NCBI GenBank assembly: GCA_000165345.1
Contig: CM000430.1
Coordinates: 672,001-736,000, forward strand
Reading direction: 5' to 3'
Length of the DNA stretch: 64,000 nt
In this document: in pieces, positions 6,135 to 51,800 of the stretch
Numbering within the stretch: position 1 is the stretch's first letter
Layout: each line of letters starts with the position of its first letter
Program-made: the position numbers and the translations under genes
Notes under the pieces: generated by a model
What the model saw: the letters and a program-made list of their open reading frames with translations, nothing else
Told to the model about the DNA's origin: nothing
Databases searched by the model: none

Positions 6135-7841
6135 ATGGAGCAAGTTCAAGTAACGCCTTATCTTGACCAGAAGCCAGGAACAAGTGGTCTAAGAAAGAAA
6201 ACCCGTGTATTTATGGAAGGAACTTACTTGGCTAACTTTATTGAATCATACTTCCAATCATTCCCACCTGAAAATTTTGAAGGTGCAACACTTTTGGTAG
6301 CTGGCGATGGTAGATTCTTTCTACCAGAAGCAATACAAATTATTTCCGAAATTGCTGCAGCACATAAAGTTAAAAGGATTTGGACTGGTGTTAATGGCTT
6401 ATGTTCAACACCAGCAGGGAGTGCTATCATAAGAGAAAGAGAAGGCGGTATTGCAGTCGGTGGAATCTTATTAACAGCTTCACACAACCCAGGTGGTATT
6501 GATGAGGACTTTGGAGTTAAATTTAACGGAAAGAATGGTGGCCCAGCTCAAGATTCGGTTACCAATACAATTTTTGAAATTACAAAAAAATTAACATCAT
6601 ATAAGAAGATTTCACTTCCTAAAATTGATTTAAGTAAAATTGGCGTGCAGGAATTAATACCCAATCAATTTACCGTCGAAGTAATAGATACATCTGAAGA
6701 TTGGCTAAAATTAATGAAAAAGATATTTGATTTCCAAAAGATTCAAAATCTACTTAATAGAAAAGATTTTAAAATGGCTTTTGATTCTATGCATGGTGTG
6801 GCTGGACCATATGCAAGAAAACTCTTTGTTGACGAATTTGGATTGCCAGAAAGTTCATTGTTACATTTGGAATCAAAGCCAGATTTTGGAGGGCTTCATC
6901 CTGATCCAAATCTTACTTATGCAAAAGACTTAGTTGAATTAATGAAAGTTAAATCTCCAGAAAAAGTTGATAAAAGCACGCCAGATTTTGGTGCTGCTGG
7001 AGATGGTGACTGTGATAGAAATATGATTTTGGGTAAAGGATTCTTTGTTACCCCTTCAGATTCTGTTGCAATTATTGCATCATATGCGAAAGAAGCAATC
7101 CCATACTTCTCAAAAGGATTGGCTGGTGTCTCAAGATCTATGCCTACTAGTACTTCGCTCAATAATGTAGCAGAAAAGCTCGGAATCCCATGCTATGAGG
7201 TACCAACAGGATGGAAATACTTTGGTAATTTAATGGATGCAAAAATGATTGACATATGTGGTGAAGAATCTTTTGGAACAGGAAGTGACCATATTCGTGA
7301 AAAGGATGGATTATGGGCAGTGTTGGCTTGGTTATCGATTCTAGCCCACAAGAATCCAGACCCAACAAAGCCATTGGTATCTGTTGAGGATATCACTAGG
7401 GAATTCTGGAAAACATATGGAAGAAACTACTACACTAGATTCGATTACGAATCAATTGAAACAGAAAAAGCTGATCAATTCTTTAAACATTTAAATTCTT
7501 TAATGGAAGATCATCAGAAATTAAGAGAAATCATTAAACCATATGGTATTGATATCAAATTAACTGATAACTTTACATATAATGATCCAGTAGATAAATC
7601 TGTCGCAAAAAATCAGGGTTTAAGATTTATCTTTCAGGATAACTCCAGAGTTGTTTTCCGCCTATCAGGTACAGGTTCAGTAGGAGCAACAATTCGAATT
7701 TACATTGAAAAGACTGTGAGTGATCAAACAAAAGTTAATAGCACATCAAACGAAATCCTTGGCGATTTGATTGAGATAGTTGAGAAAAAGATTAAATTAA
7801 AAGAATCGACAGGAAGAGATAGGCCAACTGTTATAACTTAA
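6135..7841 (+). CDS. phosphoglucomutase (alpha-D-phosphohexomutase), upstream cytosolic-type copy
   Basis: It has the active-site loop TASHNPGG and the metal-binding loop DGDCDRNMILG, and the length is PGM-like at 568 aa. There is no signal peptide. Confidence 0.9.
   Translation: MEQVQVTPYLDQKPGTSGLRKKTRVFMEGTYLANFIESYFQSFPPENFEGATLLVAGDGRFFLPEAIQIISEIAAAHKVKRIWTGVNGLCSTPAGSAIIREREGGIAVGGILLTASHNPGGIDEDFGVKFNGKNGGPAQDSVTNTIFEITKKLTSYKKISLPKIDLSKIGVQELIPNQFTVEVIDTSEDWLKLMKKIFDFQKIQNLLNRKDFKMAFDSMHGVAGPYARKLFVDEFGLPESSLLHLESKPDFGGLHPDPNLTYAKDLVELMKVKSPEKVDKSTPDFGAAGDGDCDRNMILGKGFFVTPSDSVAIIASYAKEAIPYFSKGLAGVSRSMPTSTSLNNVAEKLGIPCYEVPTGWKYFGNLMDAKMIDICGEESFGTGSDHIREKDGLWAVLAWLSILAHKNPDPTKPLVSVEDITREFWKTYGRNYYTRFDYESIETEKADQFFKHLNSLMEDHQKLREIIKPYGIDIKLTDNFTYNDPVDKSVAKNQGLRFIFQDNSRVVFRLSGTGSVGATIRIYIEKTVSDQTKVNSTSNEILGDLIEIVEKKIKLKESTGRDRPTVIT
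6174..7530 (+). repeat. near-identical segment of tandem PGM duplication (partner 8397..9752)
   Basis: By direct comparison the two tracts are collinear at an offset of 2223 bp with only scattered mismatches. Identity collapses immediately 3' of the codons for MEDHQ/MEDSQ. Confidence 0.85.
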
Positions 7842-8051: not shown

Positions 8052-10064
8052 ATGATGAAAATTTTGAACATACTCTTTTCATTAGTTCTTGTAAGTCAGT
8101 ATGTCAATGCAAACGAAAGTGTGGGGAATTTGAGATATTTGCAGAAAATAAATCTGATCGAACCTACCGATGGTCAAGCAAAGGTAGTTACCTCCCAGGA
8201 TGTTCAAATTAATCAGGGAAGGGCCCTAATTAAGAAGAAAGTGTCCGTAGTAACAAGAAATGTCATTGAAACCGAAACAACTGAGACTTATTATTATTCA
8301 GATAAAGGTCTAGATGCTTGGAGTCCTAATGAAAATGATAATCTATTAGATATGTTAGTTCAAGAAGTTCAAATATCTCCTTATCTTGATCAAAAGCCAG
8401 GAACAAGTGGTCTAAGAAAGAAAACCCGTGTATTTATGGAAGGAACTTACTTGGCTAACTTTATTGAATCATACTTCCAATCATTCCCACCTGAAAATTT
8501 TGAAGGTGCAACACTTTTGGTAGCTGGCGATGGTAGATTCTTTCTACCAGAAGCAATACAAATTATTTCCGAAATTGCTGCAGCACATAAAGTTAAAAGG
8601 ATTTGGACTGGTGTTAACGGTTTATGTTCAACACCAGCAGGGAGTGCTATCATAAGAGAAAGAGAAGGCGGTATTGCAGTCGGTGGAATCTTATTAACAG
8701 CTTCACACAACCCAGGTGGTATTGATGAGGACTTTGGAGTTAAATTTAACGAAAAGAATGGAGGCCCAGCTCAAGATTCGGTCACCAACGCAATTTTTGA
8801 AATTACAAAAAAATTAACATCATATAAGAAGATTTCACTTCCCAAAATTGATTTAAGTAAAATTGGCGTACAGGAATTAATACCCAATCAATTTACCGTC
8901 GAAGTAATAGATACATCTGAAGATTGGCTAAAATTAATGAAAAAGATATTTGATTTCCAAAAGATTCAAAATCTACTTAATAGAAAAGATTTTAAAATGG
9001 TCTTTGATTCTATGCATGGTGTGGCTGGACCATATGCAAGAAAACTCTTTATTGACGAATTTGGATTGCCAGAAAGTTCATTGTTACATTTGGAATCAAA
9101 GCCAGATTTTGGAGGGCTTCATCCTGATCCAAATCTTACTTATGCAAAAGACTTAGTTGAATTAATGAAAGTTAAATCGCCAGAAAAAGTTGATAAAAAC
9201 ACACCAGATTTTGGTGCTGCTGGAGATGGTGACTGTGATAGAAATATGATTTTGGGTAAAGGATTCTTTGTTACCCCTTCAGATTCTGTTGCAATTATTG
9301 CATCATATGCAAAAGAAGCAATCCCATACTTCTCAAAAGGATTGGCTGGTGTCTCAAGATCTATGCCTACTAGTACGTCGCTCAATAATGTAGCAGAAAA
9401 GCTCGGAATCCCATGCTACGAGGTACCAACAGGATGGAAATACTTTGGTAATTTAATGGATGCAAAAATGATTGACATATGTGGTGAAGAATCTTTTGGA
9501 ACAGGAAGTGACCATATTCGTGAAAAGGACGGATTATGGGCAGTGTTGGCTTGGTTATCGATTCTAGCCTACAAGAATCCAGACCCAACAAAATCATTAG
9601 TATCTGTTGAGGATATCACTAGGGAATTCTGGAAAACATATGGAAGAAACTACTACACTAGATTCGATTACGAATCAGTCGAAACAGAAAAAGCTGATCA
9701 ATTCTTTAAACATTTAAATTCTTTAATGGAAGATTCTCAGAAATTAAGAAACTCTCTCCGTTCAAGTGGGTTGAAGGTGAAATTTATGGATAACTTTACA
9801 TATAATGATCCAGTAGATGGTTCAGTTACAAAAAATCAGGGTGTTAGGATTATATTTACGGACGGTTCAAGAATTATTTTTAGAATTTCTGGAACAGGAT
9901 CAGTGGGAGCAACTATTAGGGTATATATGGAGAAGACTGTTAAAAACCCTCAGGAATTTGAAAAAACAACCCAACAAGCTCTAAATCACTTAATTGAGAT
10001 AGTTGAGAAAAAGATCAAATTAAAAGAGATTACTGGTAGAAGCAAGCCTACAGTAATTACTTAA
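8052..10064 (+). CDS. phosphoglucomutase paralog with N-terminal signal peptide and ~105-aa extension (parafusin-like candidate)
   Basis: It has the same TASHNPGG and DGDCDRNM motifs. The N-terminus MMKILNILFSLVLVSQYVNANES is a predicted signal peptide. Nucleotides 8397-9752 are about 98-99% identical to 6174-7530 of the upstream copy. Confidence 0.85.
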   Translation: MMKILNILFSLVLVSQYVNANESVGNLRYLQKINLIEPTDGQAKVVTSQDVQINQGRALIKKKVSVVTRNVIETETTETYYYSDKGLDAWSPNENDNLLDMLVQEVQISPYLDQKPGTSGLRKKTRVFMEGTYLANFIESYFQSFPPENFEGATLLVAGDGRFFLPEAIQIISEIAAAHKVKRIWTGVNGLCSTPAGSAIIREREGGIAVGGILLTASHNPGGIDEDFGVKFNEKNGGPAQDSVTNAIFEITKKLTSYKKISLPKIDLSKIGVQELIPNQFTVEVIDTSEDWLKLMKKIFDFQKIQNLLNRKDFKMVFDSMHGVAGPYARKLFIDEFGLPESSLLHLESKPDFGGLHPDPNLTYAKDLVELMKVKSPEKVDKNTPDFGAAGDGDCDRNMILGKGFFVTPSDSVAIIASYAKEAIPYFSKGLAGVSRSMPTSTSLNNVAEKLGIPCYEVPTGWKYFGNLMDAKMIDICGEESFGTGSDHIREKDGLWAVLAWLSILAYKNPDPTKSLVSVEDITREFWKTYGRNYYTRFDYESVETEKADQFFKHLNSLMEDSQKLRNSLRSSGLKVKFMDNFTYNDPVDGSVTKNQGVRIIFTDGSRIIFRISGTGSVGATIRVYMEKTVKNPQEFEKTTQQALNHLIEIVEKKIKLKEITGRSKPTVIT

Positions 10065-10918
10065 ATCTTTTTCTGTATTAAAAAATAAATAATTTCATTA
10101 TTTTATAATTTTTCTTGGTGCAATTTGGAATTTAAATCAACGAATCTATGTATGGAGCCCTCATTTTTTTCTTCGTTTTGTTTTTATAGATATTTTTATT
10201 TGAGTTCAGTTCATTTTTTCAATATTTTCACTAATTTTTTCTCATTGTAATGGATTATTTAAATTTAATAAAAACTGGAATTATATCACTACATCATTTG
10301 TGGATTAATTAAGTTTTTATCCTTTCAAGTTTAGAAAGTTTGTAAAGTTTTATTATTTTTAGTTAGTCTTAAATCATTATGTGATAATTTATTCTGAATG
10401 ATGCATAATTTAATAAGATAAAATAGAATGTAATGTAATTTTGTCACATAAACCGTATTTAGGTCGTTTTGTATTACTTTATCATTAAGTTTCTATGCCT
10501 TTATTTTATCTCTTACTAAATTATCTATTTCCTTTTTTTTTTATAATGGATGCTCAAGTACATGCAACTAATTGCATGCTTTTGGCGCCAGAATGACATT
10601 TTTTCTCCTTTATTTAGCTTCAATATTTTTGTAAACTAGAAAAGGCGAACTAAAAGAAATAACTTACACACACATACAAAGTGCTTTCTTATTTTTATAG
10701 AAAAAAAAAGGAATATTAGAAATAAGCTTTTTTTTATTGTATTATTGTTTAATATGGGCTCTACAAGGAAATATTTTCTAAAAAAACATGGTTTTATTCT
10801 ATACCAAAATAAAATAATTGCTTTACTAATTGCGCAAAAATAAAATAAGTTTAATTAATCATTTCTTTGGTTTGTTAATTAATAATTTCTAACCATTATT
10901 CAAATATATTAATTATGT

Positions 10919-10986
10919 GGGCCCGCCTACGATAGAAATTGCCCGCCCAACGTCCATTCCGACGACAATGGTAGGCGGGAATTTCT
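10919..10986. promoter_or_regulatory. GC-rich island with three CCCGCC/GGCGGG E2F-like cores and 9-bp inverted repeat (CCCGCCTAC...GTAGGCGGG)
   Basis: It is the only GC-rich stretch in a 1.5-kb AT-rich intergenic region. A neighbouring TTGCATGC+TTTGGCGCC pair lies at 10572-10589. Confidence 0.35.
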
Positions 10987-11558
10987 GAGACAATTTTTAT
11001 GAAAATATTAAAGTACCGATATAGAGGTTAATTATATAACTGGTAAGATTTTTCTTTTTTTTTTTAATTTAAAAGAATTAGAAAATGTATAAATAAAAAC
11101 CGGGTAAATACAAGAAACATTATTTAAAGTAAATAATACAGCCAAGTATATTATTAAGGGGAAAAGACATAAAGTTAATGTACTTTTATTAAATAAGAAA
11201 ATAATAGTCAAAACCCCGGGATATAATTGTGGAAAAAAAAAACTGAATATAAAAAAATACCAAGGAGGAATAAGCGAAGTAATTGACAAGAAATCATCAT
11301 ATTTGATATAAATCAAGTTGTTTAGATTTTTTTCAATAATACAGTTTAGTATCCACGCATATATATATATATATATAAATATATATAAATATATATGTAC
11401 ATACATTTATGCCAATAGAGAGCCTTACATAGTTATTAAAGAAAATTTTAATTTAACTATACAAATAGAATATTGTTTAAGTTACAAGAACAATATCTAA
11501 TATATAAGAAATTTCATGTAACTATACAAATTAATTTGGGGATTTCTATGAGAAAAAA

Positions 11559-13259
11559 ATGAATAATATGAAGTTTTTATTTTATTTTGGATTTTTGGTT
11601 TATGTTATTGGATCATCTGTGAATGCTAATGATTTAGCTCTTCCTCTTAAGAAGAATAAGGAATGCGAACATTGCATTATAAAGGGCGATCAAAGTGTTA
11701 AAACTCAGGTTAAAGGAGCCTATTTAGTGGTTGAGAAGGAAACCACTCTTTCTAAAACTCCAGATACACAAATTAAGCCATTTGATGAAGTTCCAAAACC
11801 ACCAAAGGTTGGAACTGATGATGCCGAAGATGATAAAACCAATGTTAAGGAATTAAGTCCCACTGTTGGTGAAGTTCCAAATGTTGTTCCAGAGCCTAGA
11901 TATATTCCAACTGTAAAGATATATGATTCTCAAATTGAGGATTTATCATTTCCAGAAGATGTTGATTCAGAAACACAATCAGAAGAGTCTGAAGATGATA
12001 ATGAAGATGAGCTTATTTTGACACGTTTGCAACTTGGAGGCCAAGTTGAAGTGGTTTCAAAGAGAGACAGTGAAGGTAAGATTGAGATTCAGAATATTGG
12101 TAACCTTGATTTATCTTGTACTCGAATTGAAGAGGAAACTAAGCCAAAGAGTAAATCAAAACTTAGAGGTAATAAATCTTCAAATTCAATGGTTTCTGGT
12201 TCAGATTGCCCTCAAAGTACCCGTTTCCTGACATATGATCTCTTAATGTTACAGAATGTAGGAGAGGAGCCTACTGATGGTGATAGTGTTACTTCACAGC
12301 CATCTTTAGAGCATACAGAGTCTGAGCAGAATAGCGGTAACGGTCGTGTTATTAGAAAGTTAGCTAGTGGTTTGGAATGCGATAAATGTGAATTATGCAC
12401 AGAAGATAAGAAATGCTTCTACCATAATGGTAAGAATACTGATAAATCTTCTGAGGCTTTAGAGTCAGACCTACCTTCATCTACTACTACTACTACTACT
12501 ACTACTTCTTCTTCTACTACCACTACCACTACCACTACCACTACCACTACTACTACTACTACCACCACCGCAATCCCACCTTCAATGTCAGATGAGGAGA
12601 AGTCACCATTTGTAAGTGATGATATCTCCAACGATGAAGTCCCAGCTCAAGATGACTCAAATAAGACTCCATCTACTGAAACAAATAAAGATATAGATAT
12701 GAATGTTTTATTAGACAATATGAATGCTTTAGTTAAGATCGTTAAGGAAGGGAAAGAAGAAAGTGCTAAGGCTCAGTTAGAACTTCGTAAAGATAGGGAA
12801 CTATTGACCAAGGTTATTTTAGATCTTAGAGATTCCAAGGATTTGACACAATTATATATACAGCTTGCCAAACTTGAGATGGAAATTAACTTGGTTAAAC
12901 AAAATATTGGACAATTGAAGAGAGATTTAGAAAAGGCCAAATCTTCTAGTAACTTTTTGACTCAATATGAGAATAAGAATAATACAGAATTAGAATTAAT
13001 GAAAGAGAAAGCTATGAGTAGTAAATTATATTCTCCTAAACTTGCAAGAGCAATTTCCAGACTTGAAAAGAAAAAGATCAGTACTCATGCTATTCAAAAG
13101 GATGTCAGTAAGAGAATTGAAAGCTTATCACAAGCTATTTCTACTGAAGAATCTCGTATTTCTGAATTATTAGAGCAAAAGAAGAAAACTGAAAATATAA
13201 TAAATAAGATTTCAAGTGAGGAGAGGTTATCATTCGATGAAGTTGATAATAAGCATTAA
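11559..13259 (+). CDS. secreted Thr/Ser-rich mucin-like protein with C-terminal coiled coil
   Basis: It has the signal peptide MNNMKFLFYFGFLVYVIGSSVNANDLA and an acidic region. It has a tract of about 30 uninterrupted Thr/Ser encoded by (ACT/ACC)n, which is a likely O-glycosylation stalk. The C-terminus has heptad-like coiled-coil sequence. Confidence 0.6.
   Translation: MNNMKFLFYFGFLVYVIGSSVNANDLALPLKKNKECEHCIIKGDQSVKTQVKGAYLVVEKETTLSKTPDTQIKPFDEVPKPPKVGTDDAEDDKTNVKELSPTVGEVPNVVPEPRYIPTVKIYDSQIEDLSFPEDVDSETQSEESEDDNEDELILTRLQLGGQVEVVSKRDSEGKIEIQNIGNLDLSCTRIEEETKPKSKSKLRGNKSSNSMVSGSDCPQSTRFLTYDLLMLQNVGEEPTDGDSVTSQPSLEHTESEQNSGNGRVIRKLASGLECDKCELCTEDKKCFYHNGKNTDKSSEALESDLPSSTTTTTTTTSSSTTTTTTTTTTTTTTTTTTAIPPSMSDEEKSPFVSDDISNDEVPAQDDSNKTPSTETNKDIDMNVLLDNMNALVKIVKEGKEESAKAQLELRKDRELLTKVILDLRDSKDLTQLYIQLAKLEMEINLVKQNIGQLKRDLEKAKSSSNFLTQYENKNNTELELMKEKAMSSKLYSPKLARAISRLEKKKISTHAIQKDVSKRIESLSQAISTEESRISELLEQKKKTENIINKISSEERLSFDEVDNKH
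12479..12569 (+). repeat. trinucleotide (ACY)n coding microsatellite (poly-Thr)
   Basis: The sequence is tactactactact...accactaccact...; the antisense ORF 12419..12631 is a poly-Val artefact of this repeat. Confidence 0.9.
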
Positions 13260-14448: not shown

Positions 14449-16161
14449 TCAATGTTTACTCGAATTTTCATGTTTAGACTTGCCATTGCCTCCTCTTCCT
14501 TTTTTTCCCCCTCCTCTAGTGGAATGTCCTCCTCCTCCTCTACTAGAATGTCCTCTACCAGAGCTTCCTCCTCTACCAGAATTTACTCCTCCCCCACCAG
14601 AATGTCCTCCCCTACCAGAATGTCCTCCCCTACCAGAATGTCCTCCCCTACCAGAATGCCCTCCCCTGCCAGAATGTCCTCCTCCCCTAGAAGAATGTTC
14701 GCCTCTCTCCATACCTCCTCCTGCTCTTCTTCCTTCTCCTTCTTGTATCACTATCCCTACTCCTTCTGAGTTTTCCCCAGTACTAAGAGCATCCTTAATT
14801 TCAAGTTTTGAGAATAAATGATCAAATAAAGTAATGTTTGAAGAATTATCATGACGAGATTTCAGGAATTCTCTAGCATCAGAGTCAATTTTCTCAGTTG
14901 ATCTAAGAAGTTTTCCTCTAAGAGGAGCTCCAGGATCTCGATCATCATGTAGCTTATTCTTGTCATTCTTACTAGATGCAGATGTTTTTGATGTAGTTGT
15001 AGCCTTTTTTGATGATAAATTAAACTTTTCCAAAGAAATCAAATTCTGTTTTTTATATTTTTGAATCTCCTCAATAAATTCATTATAAGCTTTAACACTA
15101 TTTTCCAAATTCTTGGAATCATTTTCAGATTCGACCGTATTAGTATTCCCAGTAGAAGATAAAGCCAAACAAGGAACAGATTTTAACTTGGATTGAATTT
15201 CTTTATTTTGTTGATAACTTTGTTGTGCATCTTTAACCTGTTCATTTAACTGCTTCCTTTCTGATTCCTTATTTGCAAATGGGATAAATTTCGGTGGTTT
15301 TTTTGTCAGATTTTTTGATCCAGAAAATCCTTTAGATCCTGATCCACTTAATATATTATTCAATTTCCAAGATTCCACCAAAGATTCCACATTCCCTCCC
15401 AAATATTTTACATTATTATTATTTAATAATAATATTGAATTCTGTACTTGTATTTTACTTAATCCTCCTTGTTGTAAATTCAACAATAACTTTGTACCTG
15501 GATATAATACCATATTGTCTTCATTATTCATACAATTCAATCTCTCATATTCTAAAGCGTTAATTATCACTGTATCATTCTTTTGGGTACTTGATTGTTC
15601 TGAAGTTGGTAATTTCATTTTTCCTGTTGTTAATGTAAAATATAACATTCTCTTTTTAAGCTTTATTTTACTTGAAAATCCTTTTCCTTTTTTTCCTTTT
15701 TCCTCATCTAACTCAACTTTCTCTTGTTTCTTATTCACAAAATTATCACTATGATTATTATCATACTCCATTAAATCATCCCAAATTTCATCTTTAAGAT
15801 CACTATCCAAATCATCATTATCATTATCAAAATCTCCAATTGAAGACCTTTTTGGTCTTATACAATCATATGATTTTACTACCATTACTAGTAAATTATT
15901 CAAATCTGTAACTATTTTTCCATCTCTAAATTTAATTGATTCTCCTATAAAATACTCCCTTAAATCACAATCCAATACAAACTTATCCAGATCTTTTTTC
16001 CATTCATCCTTAATCATACCGCTCTTATTACTAACAACATTCTTTTTAATCTTCCCTCCTTTTTTCTCTAATTCATCCAATATATCTTGTTTCTTCTCTT
16101 CTATTATTGATAATATCCCATACTTTTCTCTCAAATATTCTTCCACTTTAATTATATTCAT
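14449..16161 (-). CDS. hypothetical protein with C-terminal Gly/Arg (GGHSGR)n repeat, RGG-box-like
   Basis: This is a 570-aa ORF. The C-terminus is GGHSGRGGHSGRGGHSGRGG...GKKGRGG, encoded by an 18-nt tandem repeat, with a KDEL-less basic tail. The N-terminal two-thirds are unremarkable. Confidence 0.5.
   Translation of the reverse strand: MNIIKVEEYLREKYGILSIIEEKKQDILDELEKKGGKIKKNVVSNKSGMIKDEWKKDLDKFVLDCDLREYFIGESIKFRDGKIVTDLNNLLVMVVKSYDCIRPKRSSIGDFDNDNDDLDSDLKDEIWDDLMEYDNNHSDNFVNKKQEKVELDEEKGKKGKGFSSKIKLKKRMLYFTLTTGKMKLPTSEQSSTQKNDTVIINALEYERLNCMNNEDNMVLYPGTKLLLNLQQGGLSKIQVQNSILLLNNNNVKYLGGNVESLVESWKLNNILSGSGSKGFSGSKNLTKKPPKFIPFANKESERKQLNEQVKDAQQSYQQNKEIQSKLKSVPCLALSSTGNTNTVESENDSKNLENSVKAYNEFIEEIQKYKKQNLISLEKFNLSSKKATTTSKTSASSKNDKNKLHDDRDPGAPLRGKLLRSTEKIDSDAREFLKSRHDNSSNITLFDHLFSKLEIKDALSTGENSEGVGIVIQEGEGRRAGGGMERGEHSSRGGGHSGRGGHSGRGGHSGRGGHSGRGGHSGGGGVNSGRGGSSGRGHSSRGGGGHSTRGGGKKGRGGNGKSKHENSSKH
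14541..14697. repeat. 18-nt tandem repeat (ccagaatgtcctcccctac)n inside CDS
   Basis: There are 5-7 copies with degenerate flanks. The overlapping + strand ORFs 14401..14769 and 14480..14821 are antisense artefacts. Confidence 0.85.
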
Positions 16162-19624: not shown

Positions 19625-22075
19625 TCATAAATATTGAAATACTGACTCATCATGTACCTTCTGCAAATCAGCCGCCTTGTACTTTCTATCACTGTCATAT
19701 ATTTTAACAGATGCTCTAACTGCTGCATGTTCAATTGATAACTCATTTACTCCTCTAATTATCCTACAGAACCCTTTCTCGCCCCAACGTTTACCCCAAC
19801 TATTTTGAACAATCCAATAAGGTATTCTTTCATTACCATAAGTTTCCCATCCCCATCCTGTTATTACCATTGCATGGTCAACTTTATGCCAAGGAATACT
19901 TGACCAAGGATATTGTCGTGTAATAGGGTCATAAAAACCTTTAAATACTCCTGAATTATATAATGAAAATTCTAATGTTGGCTCCAAACTAACTGCAACA
20001 GGCCCTTCATTCCATAATGACTCCATAATATCACGAGCAGTAGTTTTTCCATAAACGTTATTGACATAGCTGTACTCCTTTACCTTAATGATCTTTGAAC
20101 ATGACTTTGGAATGTTTTTTGTAATAGGAATATCTTTCCTACATTGAGTATTTGCTGCGCCCATATGTCCGCCTAAGTCCCAACATAATTGTTGAATAAC
20201 ATTAAACTTTTTAGGAATATTATATTTTGCACCACTGAGATGCCCCAATTCTTCATTATCTGATGAATTCTCATCATCAGAATCGCCATAATAATCGTGA
20301 ACATTTGAAATATGCTCCGCACTATCACTTCCTTCTAAGTGTTCTTCCATATCTTTATAATCATCTTGGTACTTTTGATCATGTTTTTGGCCTTGCTCTT
20401 GATCATGCTCCCGTTCATGCTCCTGTTCATGCTCCTGTTCATGCTCCTGTTCATGCTCCTGTTCATGCTCTTGATCATGCTCTTGATCATGCTCTTGATC
20501 ATACTCTTGATTATCTCCCTCTTGTTGCTTAATTTCCTTAATTTTAGACTTTTTACTTTCAAACTTCTTTCCCTTTTTTGTTTGCAGAAAACTATGGCCA
20601 TCATCTGCGATTCCAACTTCGTCTGGCGTGTAAACAGGAGTTGGATATATTTCCTTGAGACCAAGATTTTTAGCATAATCATCTACACAATCCTGCGTTC
20701 TAACGCCAACTTCCTGAGCAAATTTAAAAGCAAGAGTAATTAATCCACCTCCGCATCCTTGATTATAAACATTACATTCAGACATCTGTATTGATGATGC
20801 ATAGATTTTTCTAAGTATATCAGGCTCATTTGAATATTTAATCCACAAACGAGACGTAATTATTGTAGCTGCTGTTACTGCAAAACAATCTCCGCAATCT
20901 CCTTGATTAAAAACTTCAGGAATTAATCGTACCTTCTTTCCTAATCTTCCATAAACATGCTGAGGATTTGCCCAATCAAATGACCTAATTCTCATCCAAA
21001 TTGGTTCATCAGTGTTATTTTTAGAACCAGAAATCTGCTCTTCTTCCCTAACACTTGATATTTCTGTAATATACTCATCATTCGACTTTTTTCTTTGAAC
21101 AAAATGTGGAGAAATTTTCAATGCTTTTCTTACTTTTGGTAATGTATCCAAATTCTGAATATCTCCTATCTCAAATTTATTACTTCTACTCCATAATTTA
21201 TTCTTACTTTCAAATTCTGAATATTTTGCTGATACTTCATTTAAATACTCAGCAATTGTTGGATTTTGTGCGTTAACTGGATGATCTGGAGGTAATCCCA
21301 AAGGTGATGATCTCCATCTTGGAAGCTTCAAAGTCCATTCTGTTCTATCTGTCATCTTACCATCCCCATCAAATATCCTCATTCCATACCAACAGCCTCT
21401 TCTAAGCTTTAAATCTTCACTCATAACCAGCCAAGGATAATTATTGTACTTACTTCTTTCTTCAAGTGATAATATCTTATTCTCTTCTTTATTATCTTGA
21501 TTAGAAATTACACTTTCAGGATATGAATCCCACCATCCTAGAAGAGTTGTGTGGCAATAGCAATATGATGCATTAATATCTTCATGTTCATTAATATACT
21601 TGAAGAACGCTGTATATCTATATGATTTTGTCCAGAATGTGAAAGCTTGATCTAATATTACTGTCCAGTTACCCGTTGTACCAACTTTTTCAAAATCATT
21701 AAACTTTCCTGTATCAACGCCATCCAAATTCTGGGTTGAAATAACCTTCAATTCACTACCTTCAAATTTTACATCAAATGTAAATGAAAGTTTAAAATTA
21801 TTGTTCATCAATCCTCTCTCTGTTGGTGTTAACATACTATGCGCAAAATCCCTATCTGGAGATGGAAATCCACAAGTTGGATCTTCAAATTTTTGATCTG
21901 AAGGACATGGCTTATAAGTTCCCACATGAATTCTCCATGTGCCAACCACATCGCCATGAATACAATTTGGTGGTAAATCACTTGATATTTCTCTAATTAG
22001 TATTGAAAAAAACCAACAAAATAAAGCCCATTTCCTTCGCAAACTAATATGAAATCTTGATTTAAATCCTCCCAT
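19625..22075 (-). CDS. cathepsin C (dipeptidyl peptidase I)-like papain-family cysteine protease
   Basis: The N-terminal exclusion domain is DLPPNCIHGDVVGTWRIHVG...YTAFFKY...YCYCHTTLLGWW (cathepsin C is DTPANCTY.DLLGTW...FAFFKY). The catalytic Cys box is QGDCGDCFAVTAA and the His/Asn box is VDHAMVITGWG...VQNSWG. It has an acidic (EHEQ/EHDQ)n insertion. Confidence 0.8.
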   Translation of the reverse strand: MGGFKSRFHISLRRKWALFCWFFSILIREISSDLPPNCIHGDVVGTWRIHVGTYKPCPSDQKFEDPTCGFPSPDRDFAHSMLTPTERGLMNNNFKLSFTFDVKFEGSELKVISTQNLDGVDTGKFNDFEKVGTTGNWTVILDQAFTFWTKSYRYTAFFKYINEHEDINASYCYCHTTLLGWWDSYPESVISNQDNKEENKILSLEERSKYNNYPWLVMSEDLKLRRGCWYGMRIFDGDGKMTDRTEWTLKLPRWRSSPLGLPPDHPVNAQNPTIAEYLNEVSAKYSEFESKNKLWSRSNKFEIGDIQNLDTLPKVRKALKISPHFVQRKKSNDEYITEISSVREEEQISGSKNNTDEPIWMRIRSFDWANPQHVYGRLGKKVRLIPEVFNQGDCGDCFAVTAATIITSRLWIKYSNEPDILRKIYASSIQMSECNVYNQGCGGGLITLAFKFAQEVGVRTQDCVDDYAKNLGLKEIYPTPVYTPDEVGIADDGHSFLQTKKGKKFESKKSKIKEIKQQEGDNQEYDQEHDQEHDQEHEQEHEQEHEQEHEQEHEREHDQEQGQKHDQKYQDDYKDMEEHLEGSDSAEHISNVHDYYGDSDDENSSDNEELGHLSGAKYNIPKKFNVIQQLCWDLGGHMGAANTQCRKDIPITKNIPKSCSKIIKVKEYSYVNNVYGKTTARDIMESLWNEGPVAVSLEPTLEFSLYNSGVFKGFYDPITRQYPWSSIPWHKVDHAMVITGWGWETYGNERIPYWIVQNSWGKRWGEKGFCRIIRGVNELSIEHAAVRASVKIYDSDRKYKAADLQKVHDESVFQYL
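20380..20512. repeat. 12-nt tandem repeat (catgctcctgtt / catgctcttgat)n inside cathepsin C CDS
   Basis: About 10 copies encode (EHEQ)/(EHDQ)n. ORFs 20263..20532, 20335..20682 and 20339..20743 are artefacts of this repeat. Confidence 0.85.
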
Positions 22076-26799: not shown

Positions 26800-29121
26800 A
26801 TGAAAGAAAAGACACCAGGAGAAGCAAAGCGAGGTGATATTGAAACCAAATCACACTCGGGATTGGTTTCCTCGTTCCATGCAGATGCTCCCACTTTCCA
26901 GCCACGAAGTGGCTTCGTGGTAGGGATGGGATCTGGAGCAGGAACAGGAACAGGAACAGGAACAGGAACAGGAACAGGAACAGGAGCAGGAGCAGGAACA
27001 AGTGGAGCTTCAGGCTCAGGAGGGGAGATGGGATCTGGATTAACAGCTTCAGCACAACCTTTTATCCCATCGGCAATTAGACACAATACAAGCAATACAA
27101 TTGATCATGAGCATGGAGGTTTCCAGATCTCCTCTGCTAGCTATTCTAGCTCTCAGCTTGGAGCTCAGCCAGCTAGTGGCTCAAAGCATAACCTAGTTTT
27201 TAGTGGTTCGGGAAGTATTATAGGAGGTGCTAATCAGGATTCAGGAGGGTTTGGAGGGATAGATCTTCTTGGTAATACTTCCGTCTCTGACGGAGCTATA
27301 GGTGTCATTAGTGGTCTCCCCGGATCAGAGTATGAGGGATTATTGCTTGGAGGAACGACGTCTGGACAAAAGTCCAGCTCAAGCTTGCAAGAGGAATCAC
27401 AAACCTCTTTGGGGGGAGGAGGCATTCATGGTATTCAATACGGCTCTGGAGCAAGTTCTGGTTCGGGCAACTCAGGAGTTGGTAGTTTCCAGAGCCATGG
27501 TATGAATGGAATCGATTCCTCAAATTACTATGGTGACTCAGGTAGCCACACGGTGGGACAGAATCAATCCGTAGGAGCCGGATCTGGACCAGGAGCTGTA
27601 TCTGGAGGAATAGGATTGGGTCTGGGAGTAGGGGTTGGTGGGTCAGGCCCCTCTGCAGGGATTACCCAGCACCACCATCCACACCCTAATGTATTGGATC
27701 TTTCGGAATACTGTAGAAGGGTTAGAGGTTGGAATCTGCCATTCTTGAGAACAATCCCACAGATGAATGCTATAACTCAAATAAGACATGAGCTGCAGCT
27801 TCAAAACATTTCCCTTTTATTAACACAAAACGATATTATCTCAGCCAATCAAGGTCATGGCAATAACTCTGGAGAAGGAAGTGGAAATGGAGGTGGAGGA
27901 GCTGGGAATAGTTCTGGAGGAATTGGACAGCATTATGTACCTCCTATTGTACAAAGGGTCTTCTATGGTCTTTGTTTGCTCGATGATTCAAATGTGGCTT
28001 CGACAACTAGATTTTGTGGTTATCAGACCTACGCCTACAAGGCAATTAATGTTGAAGACTACTCTGCCTACTGTTTGAGAAGAATAGACGGCTTTCCTCT
28101 ATCAGAGTTTGAAGCTGTAAGACCTCTTTTAGAGAGATGGCAGAAGCTTGCACAGCATCCATGTATTGTATCATACAGACAGAGCTTTGCATCTTTGGAT
28201 TTTTCACAGGGTTCATTAATAGCAGTATATGATTATATCCCAAATGCTAGTACAATGGAATCAGTTCATTTCAAAGAACCAATCGGAGAGCCTTTATTGT
28301 GGAATTACATTATTCAGATTGTTCTTGCTTTGGTTCATATCCATAGTTCTCAGCTAGCAGCAAGAGTGATTGATCCAACAAAACTGTTAATTTCATATAG
28401 AGGCAGGTTACGTTTGAATTGCGTAGGAATTTTGGACCTAACAAGGGTAGATGAATCTAAAACGATCTTGGACTACCAGAAACAAGATCTGGTTGCTCTT
28501 GGGTACATAATCCTTGCTTTATGTTGTGGATCACTGACAATTATTAATGATTTAAATCATGCAGTTGAACAAATTTTCCTGAAATCATCCTTATACTCGA
28601 ACGATCTAAAAAAGTTAGTACTTATTCTTCTCTCAAAGCCTGCTTTGAACAAGAATAACTTGGATGTTTTCATCCTTGCCAATATGCTAGCAGCAAGAAT
28701 GATCCCTCAAATTGAGCACAGTCTGAAACTTACTGATGCTCTAGAGAACGAATTTAGGAAAGAAATTGACAATGGAAGACTCTTTAGACTTCTCACTAAA
28801 ATTAACACAATTGCGGACAGAACACAACTTAATGCTATTCACAAGTGGAACGAGACTGGGGACAGATATATTTGCAAACTTTTTAGAGAGTACTTATTCC
28901 AGCAAACAGATAGCCAAGGAAGACCCGTAATTGATATGGGGCACATTCTTGACTCTCTTGCCAAAGTCGACGTCGGTACTAGTGAAACCATCACTCTCAT
29001 GTCTAGCGATGGGTCCTCCATCCTGCTTGTCTCCTTTGCTGATATAAAGCATTCAATTGAAAAGTCATTCTGCGAAATCATCGCAGCTACCACCACAAGT
29101 TCTAACTTCCACGACTTATAA
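26800..29121 (+). CDS. PAN3 (poly(A)-nuclease PAN2-PAN3 subunit) pseudokinase
   Basis: The C-terminal pseudokinase/knob region is PCIVSYRQSFASLDF...LLWNYIIQIVLALVHIHSSQLAARVIDPTKLLISYRGRLRLNCVGILDL, which closely parallels PAN3 (ACRVMDPTKILITGKTRLRVNCVGVFD). The N-terminus is Gly/Ser-rich with a (GT)n dipeptide repeat. Confidence 0.7.
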   Translation: MKEKTPGEAKRGDIETKSHSGLVSSFHADAPTFQPRSGFVVGMGSGAGTGTGTGTGTGTGTGAGAGTSGASGSGGEMGSGLTASAQPFIPSAIRHNTSNTIDHEHGGFQISSASYSSSQLGAQPASGSKHNLVFSGSGSIIGGANQDSGGFGGIDLLGNTSVSDGAIGVISGLPGSEYEGLLLGGTTSGQKSSSSLQEESQTSLGGGGIHGIQYGSGASSGSGNSGVGSFQSHGMNGIDSSNYYGDSGSHTVGQNQSVGAGSGPGAVSGGIGLGLGVGVGGSGPSAGITQHHHPHPNVLDLSEYCRRVRGWNLPFLRTIPQMNAITQIRHELQLQNISLLLTQNDIISANQGHGNNSGEGSGNGGGGAGNSSGGIGQHYVPPIVQRVFYGLCLLDDSNVASTTRFCGYQTYAYKAINVEDYSAYCLRRIDGFPLSEFEAVRPLLERWQKLAQHPCIVSYRQSFASLDFSQGSLIAVYDYIPNASTMESVHFKEPIGEPLLWNYIIQIVLALVHIHSSQLAARVIDPTKLLISYRGRLRLNCVGILDLTRVDESKTILDYQKQDLVALGYIILALCCGSLTIINDLNHAVEQIFLKSSLYSNDLKKLVLILLSKPALNKNNLDVFILANMLAARMIPQIEHSLKLTDALENEFRKEIDNGRLFRLLTKINTIADRTQLNAIHKWNETGDRYICKLFREYLFQQTDSQGRPVIDMGHILDSLAKVDVGTSETITLMSSDGSSILLVSFADIKHSIEKSFCEIIAATTTSSNFHDL
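26935..27000 (+). repeat. hexanucleotide (GGAACA)n coding repeat
   Basis: About 9 copies then GGAGCA variants encode GTGTGTGTGAGAG. The antisense ORFs 26793..27095 and 26798..27055 are artefacts. Confidence 0.9.
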
Positions 29122-48882: not shown

Positions 48883-51800
48883 TCAGCCTTTTTTCTTTAT
48901 TCTATACAATTTTGGAAGGTCAAGATAATGCTCTTTAATTATTGATAATGAGCTTCTTGGATATATGTTGAATTTCTTATTTAGTATTGAGGAATACTGT
49001 TGGTACTTTATTCTATAAGATATAAAGAAATCATCAATTCCAAGTGATTTATAACGTGAATTAAGGCAAGTAATAATTGAATCATACACAGCACATTTAA
49101 TTAGCAAATTCCATTGGTATTTATTAGGAAGTTGCTTTTTATACGAATAAATATTGTAGCAACATGCGTTTGAAATCCACTCCAAAACTTTGACTAAGAA
49201 TCTGGGATTAATAAACCCTTGGTGTATTTTCTTAATTCTTTTAAAGGTTGAAAGCAGTTTTAGTATACCAATATATACAACAATCACTATATTTGTGTAA
49301 ATCTATATGATAAAGAAAAGAATTTTCATAATAAACAAGAATGAAAATTAATTAATTAATTAATTGGTTGGTTATTTGTTGAATTATATTTAAAACTTAC
49401 CGTAAATAAAGAATTGATTTTACAATCATATAGCAATCCATTCTTGATTCTAAAATCAAAGTATCTTATTAATTTTATACCCAAAACAGACCACATATAA
49501 TTTGACTTTTGAAGGTTTTCAGATATCGTCGTCGACTTAAACCTGTGAAAATTTGAATAATTACTTGTAAATTGGTGCTTAGTTGTCAAGGTTACAGTAT
49601 CCATAACACATATGAATTCCAAATTCTTCCATGGGGAAACCATGCAATTCAAATAGCTGTACTCACTGGAAAACTTCATTCCTGTCCATGATACTTGTTT
49701 ATGGAACTGTTTTAAGGCTATCTTAGCCTTGTTAATCATTTCTTTTTCATTTTGGCAGTCCTTTTCACTTTTGTTGGTATTTATTCTCTTTTCCACTGGA
49801 CTGCTTGTGCACTCTGTCGAAGGTGGGAAGGAAGAAGAGGACGATGAGGAAGACGACGAAGAAGATGAAGAGGAAGATGAAGAGGAACAAGATGATGAAC
49901 AGGAAGAGGAAGGCGAAGATAGTAAAACATCATCCTCCTCAAGGATGATGATCTCATTATTGTGGTCAATCCAAGGAAAGTTAGAGTTGATTTTGTCCTT
50001 GGAAACGTTCGATCCCCATAGTTTTTGTATATAAAGTAACTTTAAGAACTTTTTGGCGGACTCCAAATCGGATGTGAGAAAAAGAAAATCGTCTACCCAT
50101 CTCAATAAGAGACTTTCTTGCTTATTGCTCTGAGAAGGACTTTCTTGATCATAACTTTTGAGATTGGCACGGATTTGGCAATTCTGGTTGTTGATATTAT
50201 TATTAAACTCTTCGGAAGGTTGCAGTAAAACACTTTTAGCATTAATATTATATTCTGATATTTCTAGTCTTCTTTTTTTACTTGTACTAGTATTATAAAT
50301 ATTTATCTCATTTTCTTTAAATTCTGGGTAACGGGATAATCCTGTCTCAAGATCATGTTGTGAAAATAAGTCTTTTTCAGTTGGATCAAGTAATTGTACT
50401 TTTTCTTGTTTAATTGGATTCAGAAATGATAAAGAAATGTAAGAGGAGGAAAAAAATGAATGTCCCAAAAGATTCTGGATTTCTGGATTTAGATCTAAGA
50501 AATTATAATAGAGACAACAAAGAATGTAAGAAATACTTGATCCTTGTGGAATTCCAAAATCTTGCTTAAATAAGCTTAGAAATCTTTTTCCAAATTTGAT
50601 AGAATTTCCAAGTTGTTTAGATTTTATTAGTCTTAAAGACTTTGAACATGTCCTAAGTCGAAAAAAGCTTGTGTTAAGGTGGATCTTAATGATCTCCTTG
50701 ACTAATTTCCAGTTTATCACACGTCTTGAATTTAAAAAAGTAAAGATTTCTGCTTTTTTTTGTCCCAAAATACTCAAATCCTTGTTTGATAAACAAGAAT
50801 TTTTAAGATTCCAAAGAAGTTCATCTAAATCTGGTCCTATAATCCTCTTAATTTTTGATTTGACGACTTTTTGATCTTCATCATGATCTTTCTCAAAAAT
50901 AGGTACCATATTTAGTTTTCCTTTTGAAGTAATAATACATGATCTCCCAAGCTCATCTTGGTAAGAGTCTCTATTCATATTATCAAAAGGCGGAATAATT
51001 GTTGTTTTACTTAAAGCCCTTGAATATAAGCTCAAAAGGGAAATTTCATTTGGAAGAGAAATTACATCCAAAAACTCAAAAATCTTGGACTTATTTATAT
51101 TTTCAAAACAGTTCACTAAATCTGCTTTAATAATATAAATCTTTACATGGGACATTTTTTTACCTTGATTTTGATAAAAATCTTCATTCATTTGAAATTG
51201 TTGTTTGTCTCTTCTATTCTTTATCCACCAATTCTTTATAATCTTATAAATATCTCCAAACTGTACAAGAGAAGCACCAAGATGATTCTTTCCTGTCATT
51301 CTTAATAGAAAAGATCTTAAAATCTTGGAAGGATAAAACAACATATTATTTGTTGATGGACGTCTTATATCTATAATTCTATTACTTGAAGGACGTCTCA
51401 TTACCTTATTAATTGGAGTAGTAGGTACCGATGATCCTGAATTTATTCCAATTCCTATATTATAATTACCAAATCCTAATCCCACTCCTAATCTTCCTGG
51501 TGGTGTCATAATCTGACAATTTTGGCTTGAAAATGATGTAAAATTCTTTCCTCCTATATTATTAATATGACCATAATTATGATTATTTCCTACAATACCG
51601 TTATTACCATTACTATTAAAGTAGTTATAATAGTAATTGTTATTAATCCAACTTGTTGGAAGATCTCCACCAGTCCAAACTGAATTACAATCACAAAAAC
51701 CAATCTTCTTCTTTTCTTCACAAGTGTGATCTCTTTCAAGATTTTGTTGAAGAATTTGTCCAGATCCAACTTTTGATAAATTTATTAATGGTCTTAAACC

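Follow-up and report, generated by a model that had tools for sequence, protein, structure and literature searches.

Does the open reading frame with a long threonine tract on chromosome 2 of Cryptosporidium parvum encode a mucin-like antigen, or is the tract an accessory part of a conserved secreted protein? The frame lies in a 64,000-nucleotide stretch of that chromosome (the window), starts with ATG and encodes 566 residues followed by a stop codon. Two ORFs upstream of it measure 1707 and 2013 bp and are spaced 210 bp apart, an exact match to the published CpPGM1A (cgd2_3260) and CpPGM1B (cgd2_3270), and the ORF downstream matches the Pfam family RMI1_N_C. Published gene lists give the order cgd2_3270, cgd2_3290, cgd2_3300, and the name they attach to cgd2_3300 is "RecQ mediated genome instability protein". 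The frame flanked by PGM1B (cgd2_3270) on one side and by the RMI1-like gene (cgd2_3300) on the other is therefore cgd2_3290. The order PGM, target, RMI1 is kept in C. hominis and C. felis.

The gene is known, and its novelty is low. Databases carry cgd2_3290 as an "uncharacterized protein", and it is already catalogued as "Muc10", listed as cgd2_3290 / Chro.20345 / cubi00739 / cand002970 (Liu et al. 2016, Table S2; PMC5146892). A profile search retrieved C. andersoni cand_002970 (P0008) as an ortholog, in agreement with the last of these entries. The mature protein has a computed mass of ~60.5 kDa and a pI of 4.9.

Our preferred interpretation, which we consider probable, is that cgd2_3290 encodes a genus-wide, secretory-type Cryptosporidium protein built of five modules, in which the Thr run is an accessory and labile spacer within a conserved secreted scaffold. 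From the N-terminus, the modules would be a signal peptide, ~250 acidic and probably disordered residues, a CxLCx5CFYH cluster, a variable linker and a basic two-helix domain (Table 1).

Table 1. Features of cgd2_3290, in window coordinates.
Feature	Position	Strand	Basis
Complete intronless CDS of cgd2_3290 ("Muc10")	11559..13259	+	ORF list, flanking genes, collinear orthologs
Predicted signal peptide, aa 1-23 (MNNMKFLFYFGFLVYVIGSSVNA)	11559..11627	+	Hydropathy maximum, n/h/c-region layout
N-terminal half, aa 24-273, acidic	11628..12377	+	AlphaFold2 pLDDT, invariant alignment columns
Acidic block, aa 121-152 (IYDSQIEDLSFPEDVDSETQSEESEDDNEDEL)	11919..12014	+	Net charge -15 over 32 residues
Predicted beta-hairpin, aa 152-177 (LILTRLQLGG QVEVVSKR...)	12012..12089	+	DSSP strands, AlphaFold2 model
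Cys/His cluster, aa 274-289 (CDKCELCTEDKKCFYH)	12378..12425	+	Ortholog alignment
Ser/Thr run, aa 307-337 (SS T8 S3 T18), putative O-GalNAc spacer	12477..12569	+	Sequence, TRF
Conserved acidic motif, aa 344-355 (SDEEKSPFVSDD), between spacer and coiled coil	12588..12623	+	Ortholog alignment
Predicted helix 1, aa 381-487	12699..13019	+	AlphaFold2 model, heptad scan
Predicted helix 2, aa 493-565, past a Ser-Pro break	13035..13253	+	AlphaFold2 model

The N-terminus reads MNNMK-FLFYFGFLVYVIG-SSVNA|N and resembles a signal peptide, with probable cleavage after VNA. The call was made from hydropathy and by eye: the top 19-residue Kyte-Doolittle windows of the whole protein fall here (maximum 1.35), and both the hydrophobic character and the small-residue c-region are kept in 9 of 9 orthologs despite low sequence identity. 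The signal peptide proposed in a first-pass annotation of this DNA is thus supported, as is its statement that the protein ends with no obvious GPI signal or transmembrane segment: neither was found, no 19-residue window across the protein exceeds 1.6, and the C-terminus (...SFDEVDNKH) is hydrophilic, the last 20 residues having a mean hydropathy of -0.9.

Residues 24-300 have a pI of about 4.6, and the acidic region reported in the same annotation corresponds to the block at aa 121-152, where acidic character is common to all orthologs. Between residues 24 and 273, conservation is concentrated in short motifs, CxHC, PF..VP.PPKVG, VPEPKxxP.VK.YDS..EDL.FPED, ELILTRLxLGG and LRG. AlphaFold2 finds no confident fold in this half (pLDDT below 50 with 5 sequences, mean 49 with 9), which is probably disordered, as judged from alignments so shallow (5-9 sequences) that a real fold could be missed. 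The sole beta-hairpin predicted in the N-terminal half, with a block-mean pLDDT of about 54-71, contains the residues L157, G160 and G161, invariant across orthologs. Readings of ELILTRLQLGG as a ubiquitin-like or double-glycine leader, and of RKLAS (RRLAS in C. felis) as a PEXEL/TEXEL motif, were too weak to keep.

In the Cys/His cluster, C277, L279, C280, K285, C286, F287 and H289 are invariant in the 9 orthologs, giving CxLCx5CFYH. The cluster may be a disulfide knot or a metal site; its assignment as a zinc knuckle was dropped as too weak.

The C-terminal domain (aa 381-566, about 185 residues) is basic, with a pI of 9.2. Block-mean pLDDT in its two predicted helices lies between about 66 and 98; beyond residue ~430 most values exceed 88, and the second helix stays above 90 up to residue ~550. 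A Ser-Pro turn at 488-492 separates the helices, and this break in the monomer AlphaFold2 model suggests a helical hairpin. Over the last 181 residues, the heptad a/d score is 0.40, against 0.24 +/- 0.04 in shuffles, and the best segment, aa 428-470 (TQLYIQLAKLEMEINLVKQNIGQLKRDLEKAK), lies inside helix 1. The long heptad coiled coil of the first-pass annotation is thereby upheld as regards helicity and heptad periodicity, but it is split into two or three segments and is not a single unbroken rod. A Foldseek search of the PDB returned generic antiparallel coiled coils only, none at E <= 0.001, and a PDB profile search gave only Rad50 coiled-coil and tail-fibre matches (E about 0.006-0.013); these were rejected as compositional.

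Collinear orthologs occur genus-wide in Cryptosporidium, with a tandem duplication in C. felis (paralogs 1945 and 1946), and all 9 orthologs aligned keep the N-terminal motifs, the CxLCx5CFYH cluster and the coiled coil. A profile of the N-terminal region found 7 matches among 1.84 billion representatives, all of them Cryptosporidium or Logan contigs, and as far as this profile reaches the family appears to be restricted to the genus. Homolog searches with the N-terminal 277 residues or with the C-terminal alignment gave no matches and missed even the known orthologs P0001-P0004; they are therefore uninformative on coiled-coil relatives outside the genus. Metagenome scans with a protein pattern and with an exact 23-mer yielded no match and no further alleles. 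No Pfam domain scores above threshold in cgd2_3290.

The Ser/Thr run behaves differently from these modules. The first-pass annotation had put about 30 consecutive Thr/Ser residues in roughly 90 nt at 12479-12569; the run comprises 31 residues in 93 nt and begins two nucleotides earlier. The further description of the repeat as perfect does not hold: the codons read TCA TCT (ACT)8 (TCT)3 (ACTACC)5 (ACT)5 (ACC)3, a composite and interrupted trinucleotide/hexanucleotide microsatellite whose longest pure tracts are (ACT)8, 24 nt, and (ACTACC)5, 30 nt, and to which TRF assigns period 3, 27.3 copies and 84% matches. In 50 mononucleotide shuffles of the window, no Ser/Thr run exceeded 6 residues; across the six frames of the window itself there is just one other Ser/Thr run of at least 10. 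[quoted passage not shown]

The linker that holds the run is of low complexity and varies from 52 to 155 residues across orthologs. Ser/Thr enrichment of the linker is confined to the C. parvum / C. hominis / C. felis lineage, and the tract of C. felis uses mixed codons. The run has no counterpart in bovis-clade species and C. andersoni and is absent or unrecognisable in distant orthologs. Because C. andersoni, C. ryanae, C. xiaoi and one C. felis paralog of the two lack the run, it belongs to a lineage-specific linker and not to the conserved core. In C. parvum, the linker apparently grew to 31 Ser/Thr residues via slippage of ACT and ACTACC units.

A published pipeline of SignalP plus NetOGlyc classed cgd2_3290 as a secreted mucin-type glycoprotein (PMC5146892). 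A criterion quoted in PMC12407990 asks for a Ser/Thr/Pro content of 20-55% of residues and clustered S/T domains; Ser, Thr and Pro together make up 25.4% of mature cgd2_3290, just above the lower bound, with one dense cluster of 31 S/T. If the mucin domain is required to be the conserved, defining part across orthologs, cgd2_3290 falls outside, its S/T run ranging from 31 down to 0. The similarity to Pfam PF01456 (Mucin) is compositional only: a weak match over aa 292-339 scores 17.8 bits against a gathering threshold of 34.7, 1 of 9 orthologs matches, and the protein is not a member of the family. The "mucin" label fits the lineage-specific linker only.

Among secreted proteins of the parasite, Gp20 (cgd7_1280) shares with cgd2_3290 a signal peptide, an acidic composition, consecutive Thr of the SSTTTTTTT type and the lack of a membrane anchor. 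However, Gp20 has a mass of about 20 kDa, carries four Thr domains and lacks a coiled coil, and its Thr arrays have been shown to be O-GalNAc-modified (PMC5549699), whereas cgd2_3290 is about 60 kDa, has one Thr run and a 185-residue helical domain, and its glycosylation is putative; no sequence homology between the two was detected. The micronemal mucin-like glycoprotein gp900 (cgd7_4020) likewise has a signal peptide, a poly-Thr tract and a link to invasive stages, but its Thr arrays, of 33-155 or more residues, dominate the protein, which ends in a C-terminal transmembrane domain (PMC5549699); in cgd2_3290 there is just one run, of 31 residues, and TM segment and GPI signal are both missing. 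Muc25 (cgd6_40, the MSC6-7 marker), which belongs to the same predicted-mucin numbering as Muc10, also has a signal peptide, lacks an anchor and is transcribed both in sporozoites and in intracellular stages (PMC12407990). Experiments have localised Muc25, a mucin of the small granules that is exported to the microvilli of the host, and its gene has been knocked out (PMC12407990), while cgd2_3290 is known from sequence and transcripts, shows ordinary divergence (dN/dS 0.30) and has identical alleles in the assemblies found. DG8 (cgd8_5300), an example of the intrinsically disordered secreted granule proteins, was selected by criteria among which were a signal peptide, strong predicted disorder and abundant transcripts, and cgd2_3290 fits these three; DG8 also belongs to the dense-granule cluster of hyperLOPIT and has been confirmed by tagging, and the two proteins have no sequence similarity.

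Transcript data place cgd2_3290 among the top-500 expressed genes (Tandel 2019). In the supplement of that study, its level is about 12.4 log2 CPM in sporozoites and 9.7 and 8.9 in two later sample sets, which we take to be cultures of 24 h and 48 h, the second of these times being inferred. Sorted asexual stages reach 10.5 log2 CPM and females 8.7-8.8, a logFC of -1.74 (Tandel 2019). A search of the accessible literature turned up no protein-level, glycosylation or localisation results for the gene and no report of antigenicity or of a role in invasion. Neither cgd2_3290 nor Chro.20345 nor Muc10 is mentioned in the searchable main texts, and the gene was not found in the accessible parts of the supplements of a CRISPR screen, a CP2 pull-down and a TSP proteome. 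Nearly all O-glycopeptides reported by Haserick et al. (PMC5549699) came from four other proteins. The tryptic peptide containing the Ser/Thr run is 52 residues long, and standard proteomics would therefore miss it.

Taken together with known systems, these features suggest how the protein might work. It would enter the secretory pathway, where parasite GalNAc-transferases may densely modify the Thr array with O-GalNAc, following the precedent of Gp20, whose consecutive Thr (e.g., SSTTTTTTTAPV) are nearly saturated with O-GalNAc by the C. parvum enzymes (PMC5549699). The linker would thereby become a stiff spacer that resists proteases, and the coiled coil may drive oligomerisation or partner binding. 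The protein would be stored in a secretory organelle of the invasive stages and released at or after invasion, as its high transcript levels in sporozoites and asexual stages suggest. The "mucin" property would then be accessory and evolutionarily labile rather than the defining function of the protein.

An alternative, in line with the first-pass annotation and with the Muc10 listing (PMC5146892), is that the protein acts on the surface or in invasion as a classical mucin-like antigen of the kind of gp900, gp40/15 or CpMuc4/5. Its O-glycosylated Thr array would then be the functional adhesive or antigenic element and would vary in length between isolates, which would make it useful for typing. 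We consider this alternative unlikely. The organism and the overall architecture are as that annotation had them; a signal peptide is combined with a 31-residue Ser/Thr run, the C. xiaoi ortholog is annotated as "mucin like protein", and transcripts peak in sporozoites. Poly-Thr tracts, including that of gp900, have been used earlier for Cryptosporidium genotyping, and the tract of the window (93 nt, 31 codons) is 20 codons longer than that of C. hominis GCA_001483515.1 (33 nt, 11 codons). Against the antigen interpretation, however, stand the small share of the protein that the run occupies, its absence from the gastric and bovis-clade orthologs and from one C. felis paralog, all of which keep the flanking modules, the Pfam Mucin score below cut-off, and the lack of a membrane anchor for surface retention. 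The gene was also not found in the accessible part of the supplement of a 1,761-antigen array study. Selection points away from an antigen as well: dN/dS against C. hominis is 0.30 for the gene, as compared to 0.28 for a neighbouring housekeeping-type gene, and falls to 0.19 in the coiled coil, helix 1 being the most conserved part of the protein. These values are unlike those of an antigen under diversifying selection and are consistent with purifying selection. Finally, the CDS, repeat included, is identical at the nucleotide level in four other assemblies, among near-identical isolates and in a look-up that retrieves identical proteins only, so that other alleles may exist; two of these assemblies differ nearby, one in an adjacent 18-bp minisatellite and another in PGM1B.

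Less probable still is a structural role in the oocyst interior or the parasitophorous vacuole, in which coiled-coil oligomers and glycosylated spacers would form a fibrillar matrix or tether and not an invasion ligand. A signal peptide, an oligomerising coiled coil, a stiff glycosylated spacer and no anchor would suit fibrous secreted material, mucin-like glycoproteins have been proposed, in work cited in PMC5146892 and PMC5549699, as tethers between sporozoites and the inner oocyst wall, and the transcript is abundant in sporozoites, which come from oocysts. The rest of the protein is, however, kept in orthologs that have no Thr run at all. Oocyst-wall proteins are expected to show female-enriched expression, and cgd2_3290 displays the opposite pattern, its transcript being about 3.3-fold lower in sorted females, the oocyst-building stage, than in asexual stages. 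A non-secreted cytosolic or nuclear coiled-coil protein, with no functional signal peptide and an unglycosylated Thr insertion, is very improbable: the C-terminal domain weakly resembles intracellular coiled coils of the SMC/Rad50-arm type and the Cx2Cx5Cx2H spacing could superficially pass for a zinc knuckle, but the N-terminus is hydrophobic with a small-residue c-region in all nine orthologs, the conserved cysteine positions are typical of oxidised secretory proteins, and the published SignalP plus NetOGlyc pipeline called the protein secreted (PMC5146892).

The secreted scaffold with a labile spacer is the interpretation we retain as probable. A bolder version of it is offered as a tentative and rather doubtful proposal: cgd2_3290 and its orthologs may define a Cryptosporidium-only family of secreted scaffolds. 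Its conserved core would combine an acidic disordered arm that bears short linear motifs, an invariant Cys3-His cluster that either binds a metal or forms an intermolecular disulfide, and a helical hairpin of basic character. This core would assemble into part of the interface between parasite and host or of some other structure peculiar to the genus, and the Thr run would be a late, lineage-specific spacer insertion in intestinal species.

The practical value of these results is modest. The use of this locus as a typing marker was not found in the searched literature; the difference between 93 nt in C. parvum and 33 nt in C. hominis could provide a simple species-discriminating PCR size marker, with a value for within-species subtyping that is unproven. 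The mucin character of "Muc10" is limited to a short linker that varies between species, and the protein should therefore not be treated like gp900, gp40 or Muc25 in the choice of vaccine antigens or typing markers. If the protein is a component of the host-parasite interface, it is the coiled coil and the Cys/His cluster, not the Thr run, that would be worth study.

The ORF encoding the Thr-rich protein is real, and its genomic setting identifies it. The two ORFs upstream, separated by 210 bp, match exactly the published lengths and spacing (1707, 2013 and 210 bp) of the tandem phosphoglucomutases CpPGM1A (cgd2_3260) and CpPGM1B (cgd2_3270) of C. parvum chromosome 2, and the downstream ORF matches Pfam RMI1_N_C; with PGM1A/PGM1B on one side and an RMI1-like gene on the other, the ORF is therefore cgd2_3290. 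This gene is 'Muc10' (cgd2_3290 / Chro.20345 / cubi00739 / cand002970) in Table S2 of Liu et al. (2016), where it is listed among mucin-type glycoproteins predicted by SignalP and NetOGlyc (PMC5146892). C. andersoni cand_002970 emerged as an ortholog from an exhaustive profile search; since this is also the entry listed under Muc10, the identification is confirmed. Other assemblies encode the identical protein on two chromosome records of ~992 kb and on two short contigs. Already annotated and catalogued, the gene is of low novelty. In the intergenic region upstream, a short minus-strand ORF is probably spurious and may explain the missing identifier cgd2_3280.

Features of Muc10 (residues, aa) and of its surroundings (window nucleotides, nt)
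Feature	Position	Description
CpPGM1A	nt 6135-7841	1707 bp
CpPGM1B	nt 8052-10064	2013 bp
Intergenic region upstream of Muc10	nt 10065-11558	1.5 kb, AT-rich
Upstream ORF	nt 11032-11406 (-)	124 aa, low-complexity; called as a gene in other assemblies
Upstream microsatellite	nt 11359-11396	(AT)19 / ATATATATAA
Muc10 ORF	nt 11559-13259 (+)	ATG start, 566 aa encoded (ORF listing)
N-terminus		MNNMK-FLFYFGFLVYVIG-SSVNA; signal-peptide layout
Invariant short motifs	aa 112-113, 122, 131-132, 157, 160-161	EP, Y, FP, L, GG
Acidic block	aa 121-152	net charge -15
Invariant Cys/His cluster	aa 277-289	C277-x-L-C280-x4-K-C286-F-x-H289
Ser/Thr run	aa 307-337, nt 12477-12569	31 consecutive Ser/Thr
C-terminal helices	aa 381-487, 493-565	AlphaFold2
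RMI1-like gene cgd2_3300	nt 14449-16161 (-)	Pfam RMI1_N_C match
Minisatellite in cgd2_3300	nt 14533-14682	18-bp unit, 8.3 copies
Coding tandem repeat	nt 20394-20519	12/36-bp unit, 9.4 copies, 93% match
Coding tandem repeat	nt 26935-27000	GGAACA hexamer, 11 copies, 95% match
Coding tandem repeat	nt 49829-49919	GAA-rich tract

Muc10 is modular. The secreted-type architecture proposed in the first-pass annotation (signal peptide, acidic region, Thr run, no membrane anchor) is borne out by the sequence: among 19-residue hydropathy windows the N-terminus is the protein maximum, none reaches the TM-type value of 1.6, and the C-terminus is hydrophilic, so that neither a GPI signal nor a TM segment was found by hydropathy. 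The C-terminal coiled coil likewise holds: AlphaFold2 models the final ~185 residues as two long helices broken by a Ser-Pro turn (block-mean pLDDT ~66-98, mostly >88 from residue ~430), and a simple a/d heptad score for this domain lies ~4 SD above shuffles. The helical domain is basic (pI 9.2) and the N-terminal arm acidic (pI 4.6). As for the Thr run, Ser/Thr runs in shuffled copies of the window never exceed 6 residues in any frame. Its length stands, but the description of the underlying trinucleotide repeat as perfect does not: the tract starts 2 nt away from the position first assigned and is composite and interrupted (TCA TCT (ACT)8 (TCT)3 (ACTACC)5 (ACT)5 (ACC)3), with 84% matches over 27.3 copies of period 3 in TRF.

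The conserved parts of the protein lie elsewhere. Muc10 has orthologs in C. hominis (94% identical at aligned positions), C. xiaoi (annotated as 'mucin like protein'), C. ryanae, C. andersoni, C. muris and contigs of two Logan read-archive assemblies, and C. felis has two adjacent paralogs, HWI79_1945 and HWI79_1946; the order PGM, Muc10, RMI1 is kept in C. hominis and C. felis. Run against 1.84 billion representative proteins, a profile built from the N-terminal 300 residues matched nothing beyond these orthologs, and by this measure the family appears restricted to Cryptosporidium. Searches using the N-terminal 277 aa, or the C-terminal domain as an alignment, gave 0 matches and missed even the C. 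hominis ortholog found by the full-length query; they are not evidence of absence. No ortholog has a Pfam family at threshold, and PDB sequence and fold searches gave only generic coiled coils. In a nine-sequence alignment the N-terminal short motifs, the Cys/His cluster and many positions in the C-terminal helices are invariant; this family-wide Cys3-His cluster and conserved helical domain are mildly new, as is the tandem duplicate in C. felis. The two C. felis copies (JABXOJ010000026.1, 2972-4582 and 6001-7686), flanked by PGM and RMI1, encode 536 aa without a Thr run (HWI79_1945) and 561 aa with an S/T-rich run in mixed codons (HWI79_1946).

In every ortholog a low-complexity linker joins the Cys cluster to the helices. 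These linkers differ widely in length and S/T content, which makes the Thr run a lineage-specific form of a variable spacer, a mildly new observation; it is not the protein's conserved core. The codon pattern suggests that the C. parvum run grew through slippage of ACT and ACTACC units.

Linkers joining Cys cluster and helices
Ortholog	Length (aa)	Composition	Longest S/T run
C. parvum	90	S+T 50%	31
C. hominis	69	S+T 37%	11
Logan SRR31860986 (ortholog P0002)	85	S+T 44%	24
C. felis 1946	89	S+T 37%	11, mixed ACA/ACT/ACG/ACC/TCC codons
C. xiaoi, C. ryanae, ortholog P0006	133-155	S+T 18-26%, acidic 23-26%	3-4
C. felis 1945	55	S+T 30%	4
C. andersoni	52	S+T 19%	no run >=3

Muc10 is under purifying selection. 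Its CDS is 96.6% identical in nucleotides to that of C. hominis (dS 0.078, dN 0.023), with a dN/dS of 0.30, vs 0.19 for the coiled coil alone and 0.28 for the neighboring RMI1-like gene; this comparison gives no hint of diversifying selection, which an immunodominant surface antigen would be expected to show. A single difference stands out, a 60-nt (20-codon) indel in the Thr tract, and the expected variation in repeat length is thereby seen between species. Four other C. parvum assemblies show 0 nucleotide differences in the CDS, and among these close relatives the tract is therefore stable; the allele look-up returns identical proteins only, and other Thr-tract alleles could exist. A literature search found no use of the cgd2_3290 locus as a typing marker.

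Other sites in the window do vary. The cgd2_3300 minisatellite, which encodes the Gly/Arg/Ser/His-rich repeats (RGGHSG...) of the C-terminal tail, lacks one 18-bp unit (14596-14613) in GCA_035232765.1, one of the four assemblies with an unchanged cgd2_3290 CDS; across the assemblies seen, minisatellite length varies and Thr tract length is constant. As VNTR candidates, the three coding tandem repeats are cleaner than the Thr tract. In GCA_031892065.1, another of the four assemblies, seven SNPs relative to the window fall within 119 bp (8752-8870) of CpPGM1B, and all seven alternative bases are the paralogous base of PGM1A, which looks like gene conversion between the duplicates or an assembly artefact.

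Under the loose working definition used for Cryptosporidium 'mucins', Muc10 qualifies: it has a predicted signal peptide, an S+T+P content of 25%, one dense S/T cluster and a catalogue entry. It falls outside Pfam Mucin, and its mucin domain is not the conserved, defining element. The original observation was correct and its interpretation partly right: in composition the protein is mucin-like, but the role of the repeat was overstated, and surface location, antigenicity, a part in invasion and differences between isolates are putative properties. Muc10 most resembles the anchorless secreted Thr-array glycoproteins Gp20 and Muc25 and is similar by criteria to disordered granule proteins such as DG8; it has neither a TM domain like gp900 nor a GPI anchor like gp15.

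The gene is among the top 500 expressed (Tandel et al., 2019, supplements). Its log2 CPM is ~12.4 in excysted sporozoites vs 9.7 and 8.9 in two later sample sets, taken from the sample sheet as 24 h and 48 h cultures (the 48 h label is our reading), and 10.5 in sorted asexual stages vs 8.7-8.8 in females in vitro/in vivo (logFC -1.74; Tandel et al., 2019). This profile fits a product made for invasive stages and argues against a female-made oocyst-wall protein. The predicted signal peptide would direct Muc10 into the secretory pathway. In the secreted C. parvum Gp20, consecutive Thr residues are nearly saturated with O-GalNAc, and arrays of this kind are considered rigid and extended (PMC5549699); by analogy, the Muc10 Thr array may be densely O-GalNAc-modified. 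The basic helical domain could mediate oligomerization or partner binding, while the acidic, apparently disordered N-terminal arm would display the short conserved motifs and the Cys/His cluster. In sporozoites and merozoites, a secretory organelle would store the protein.
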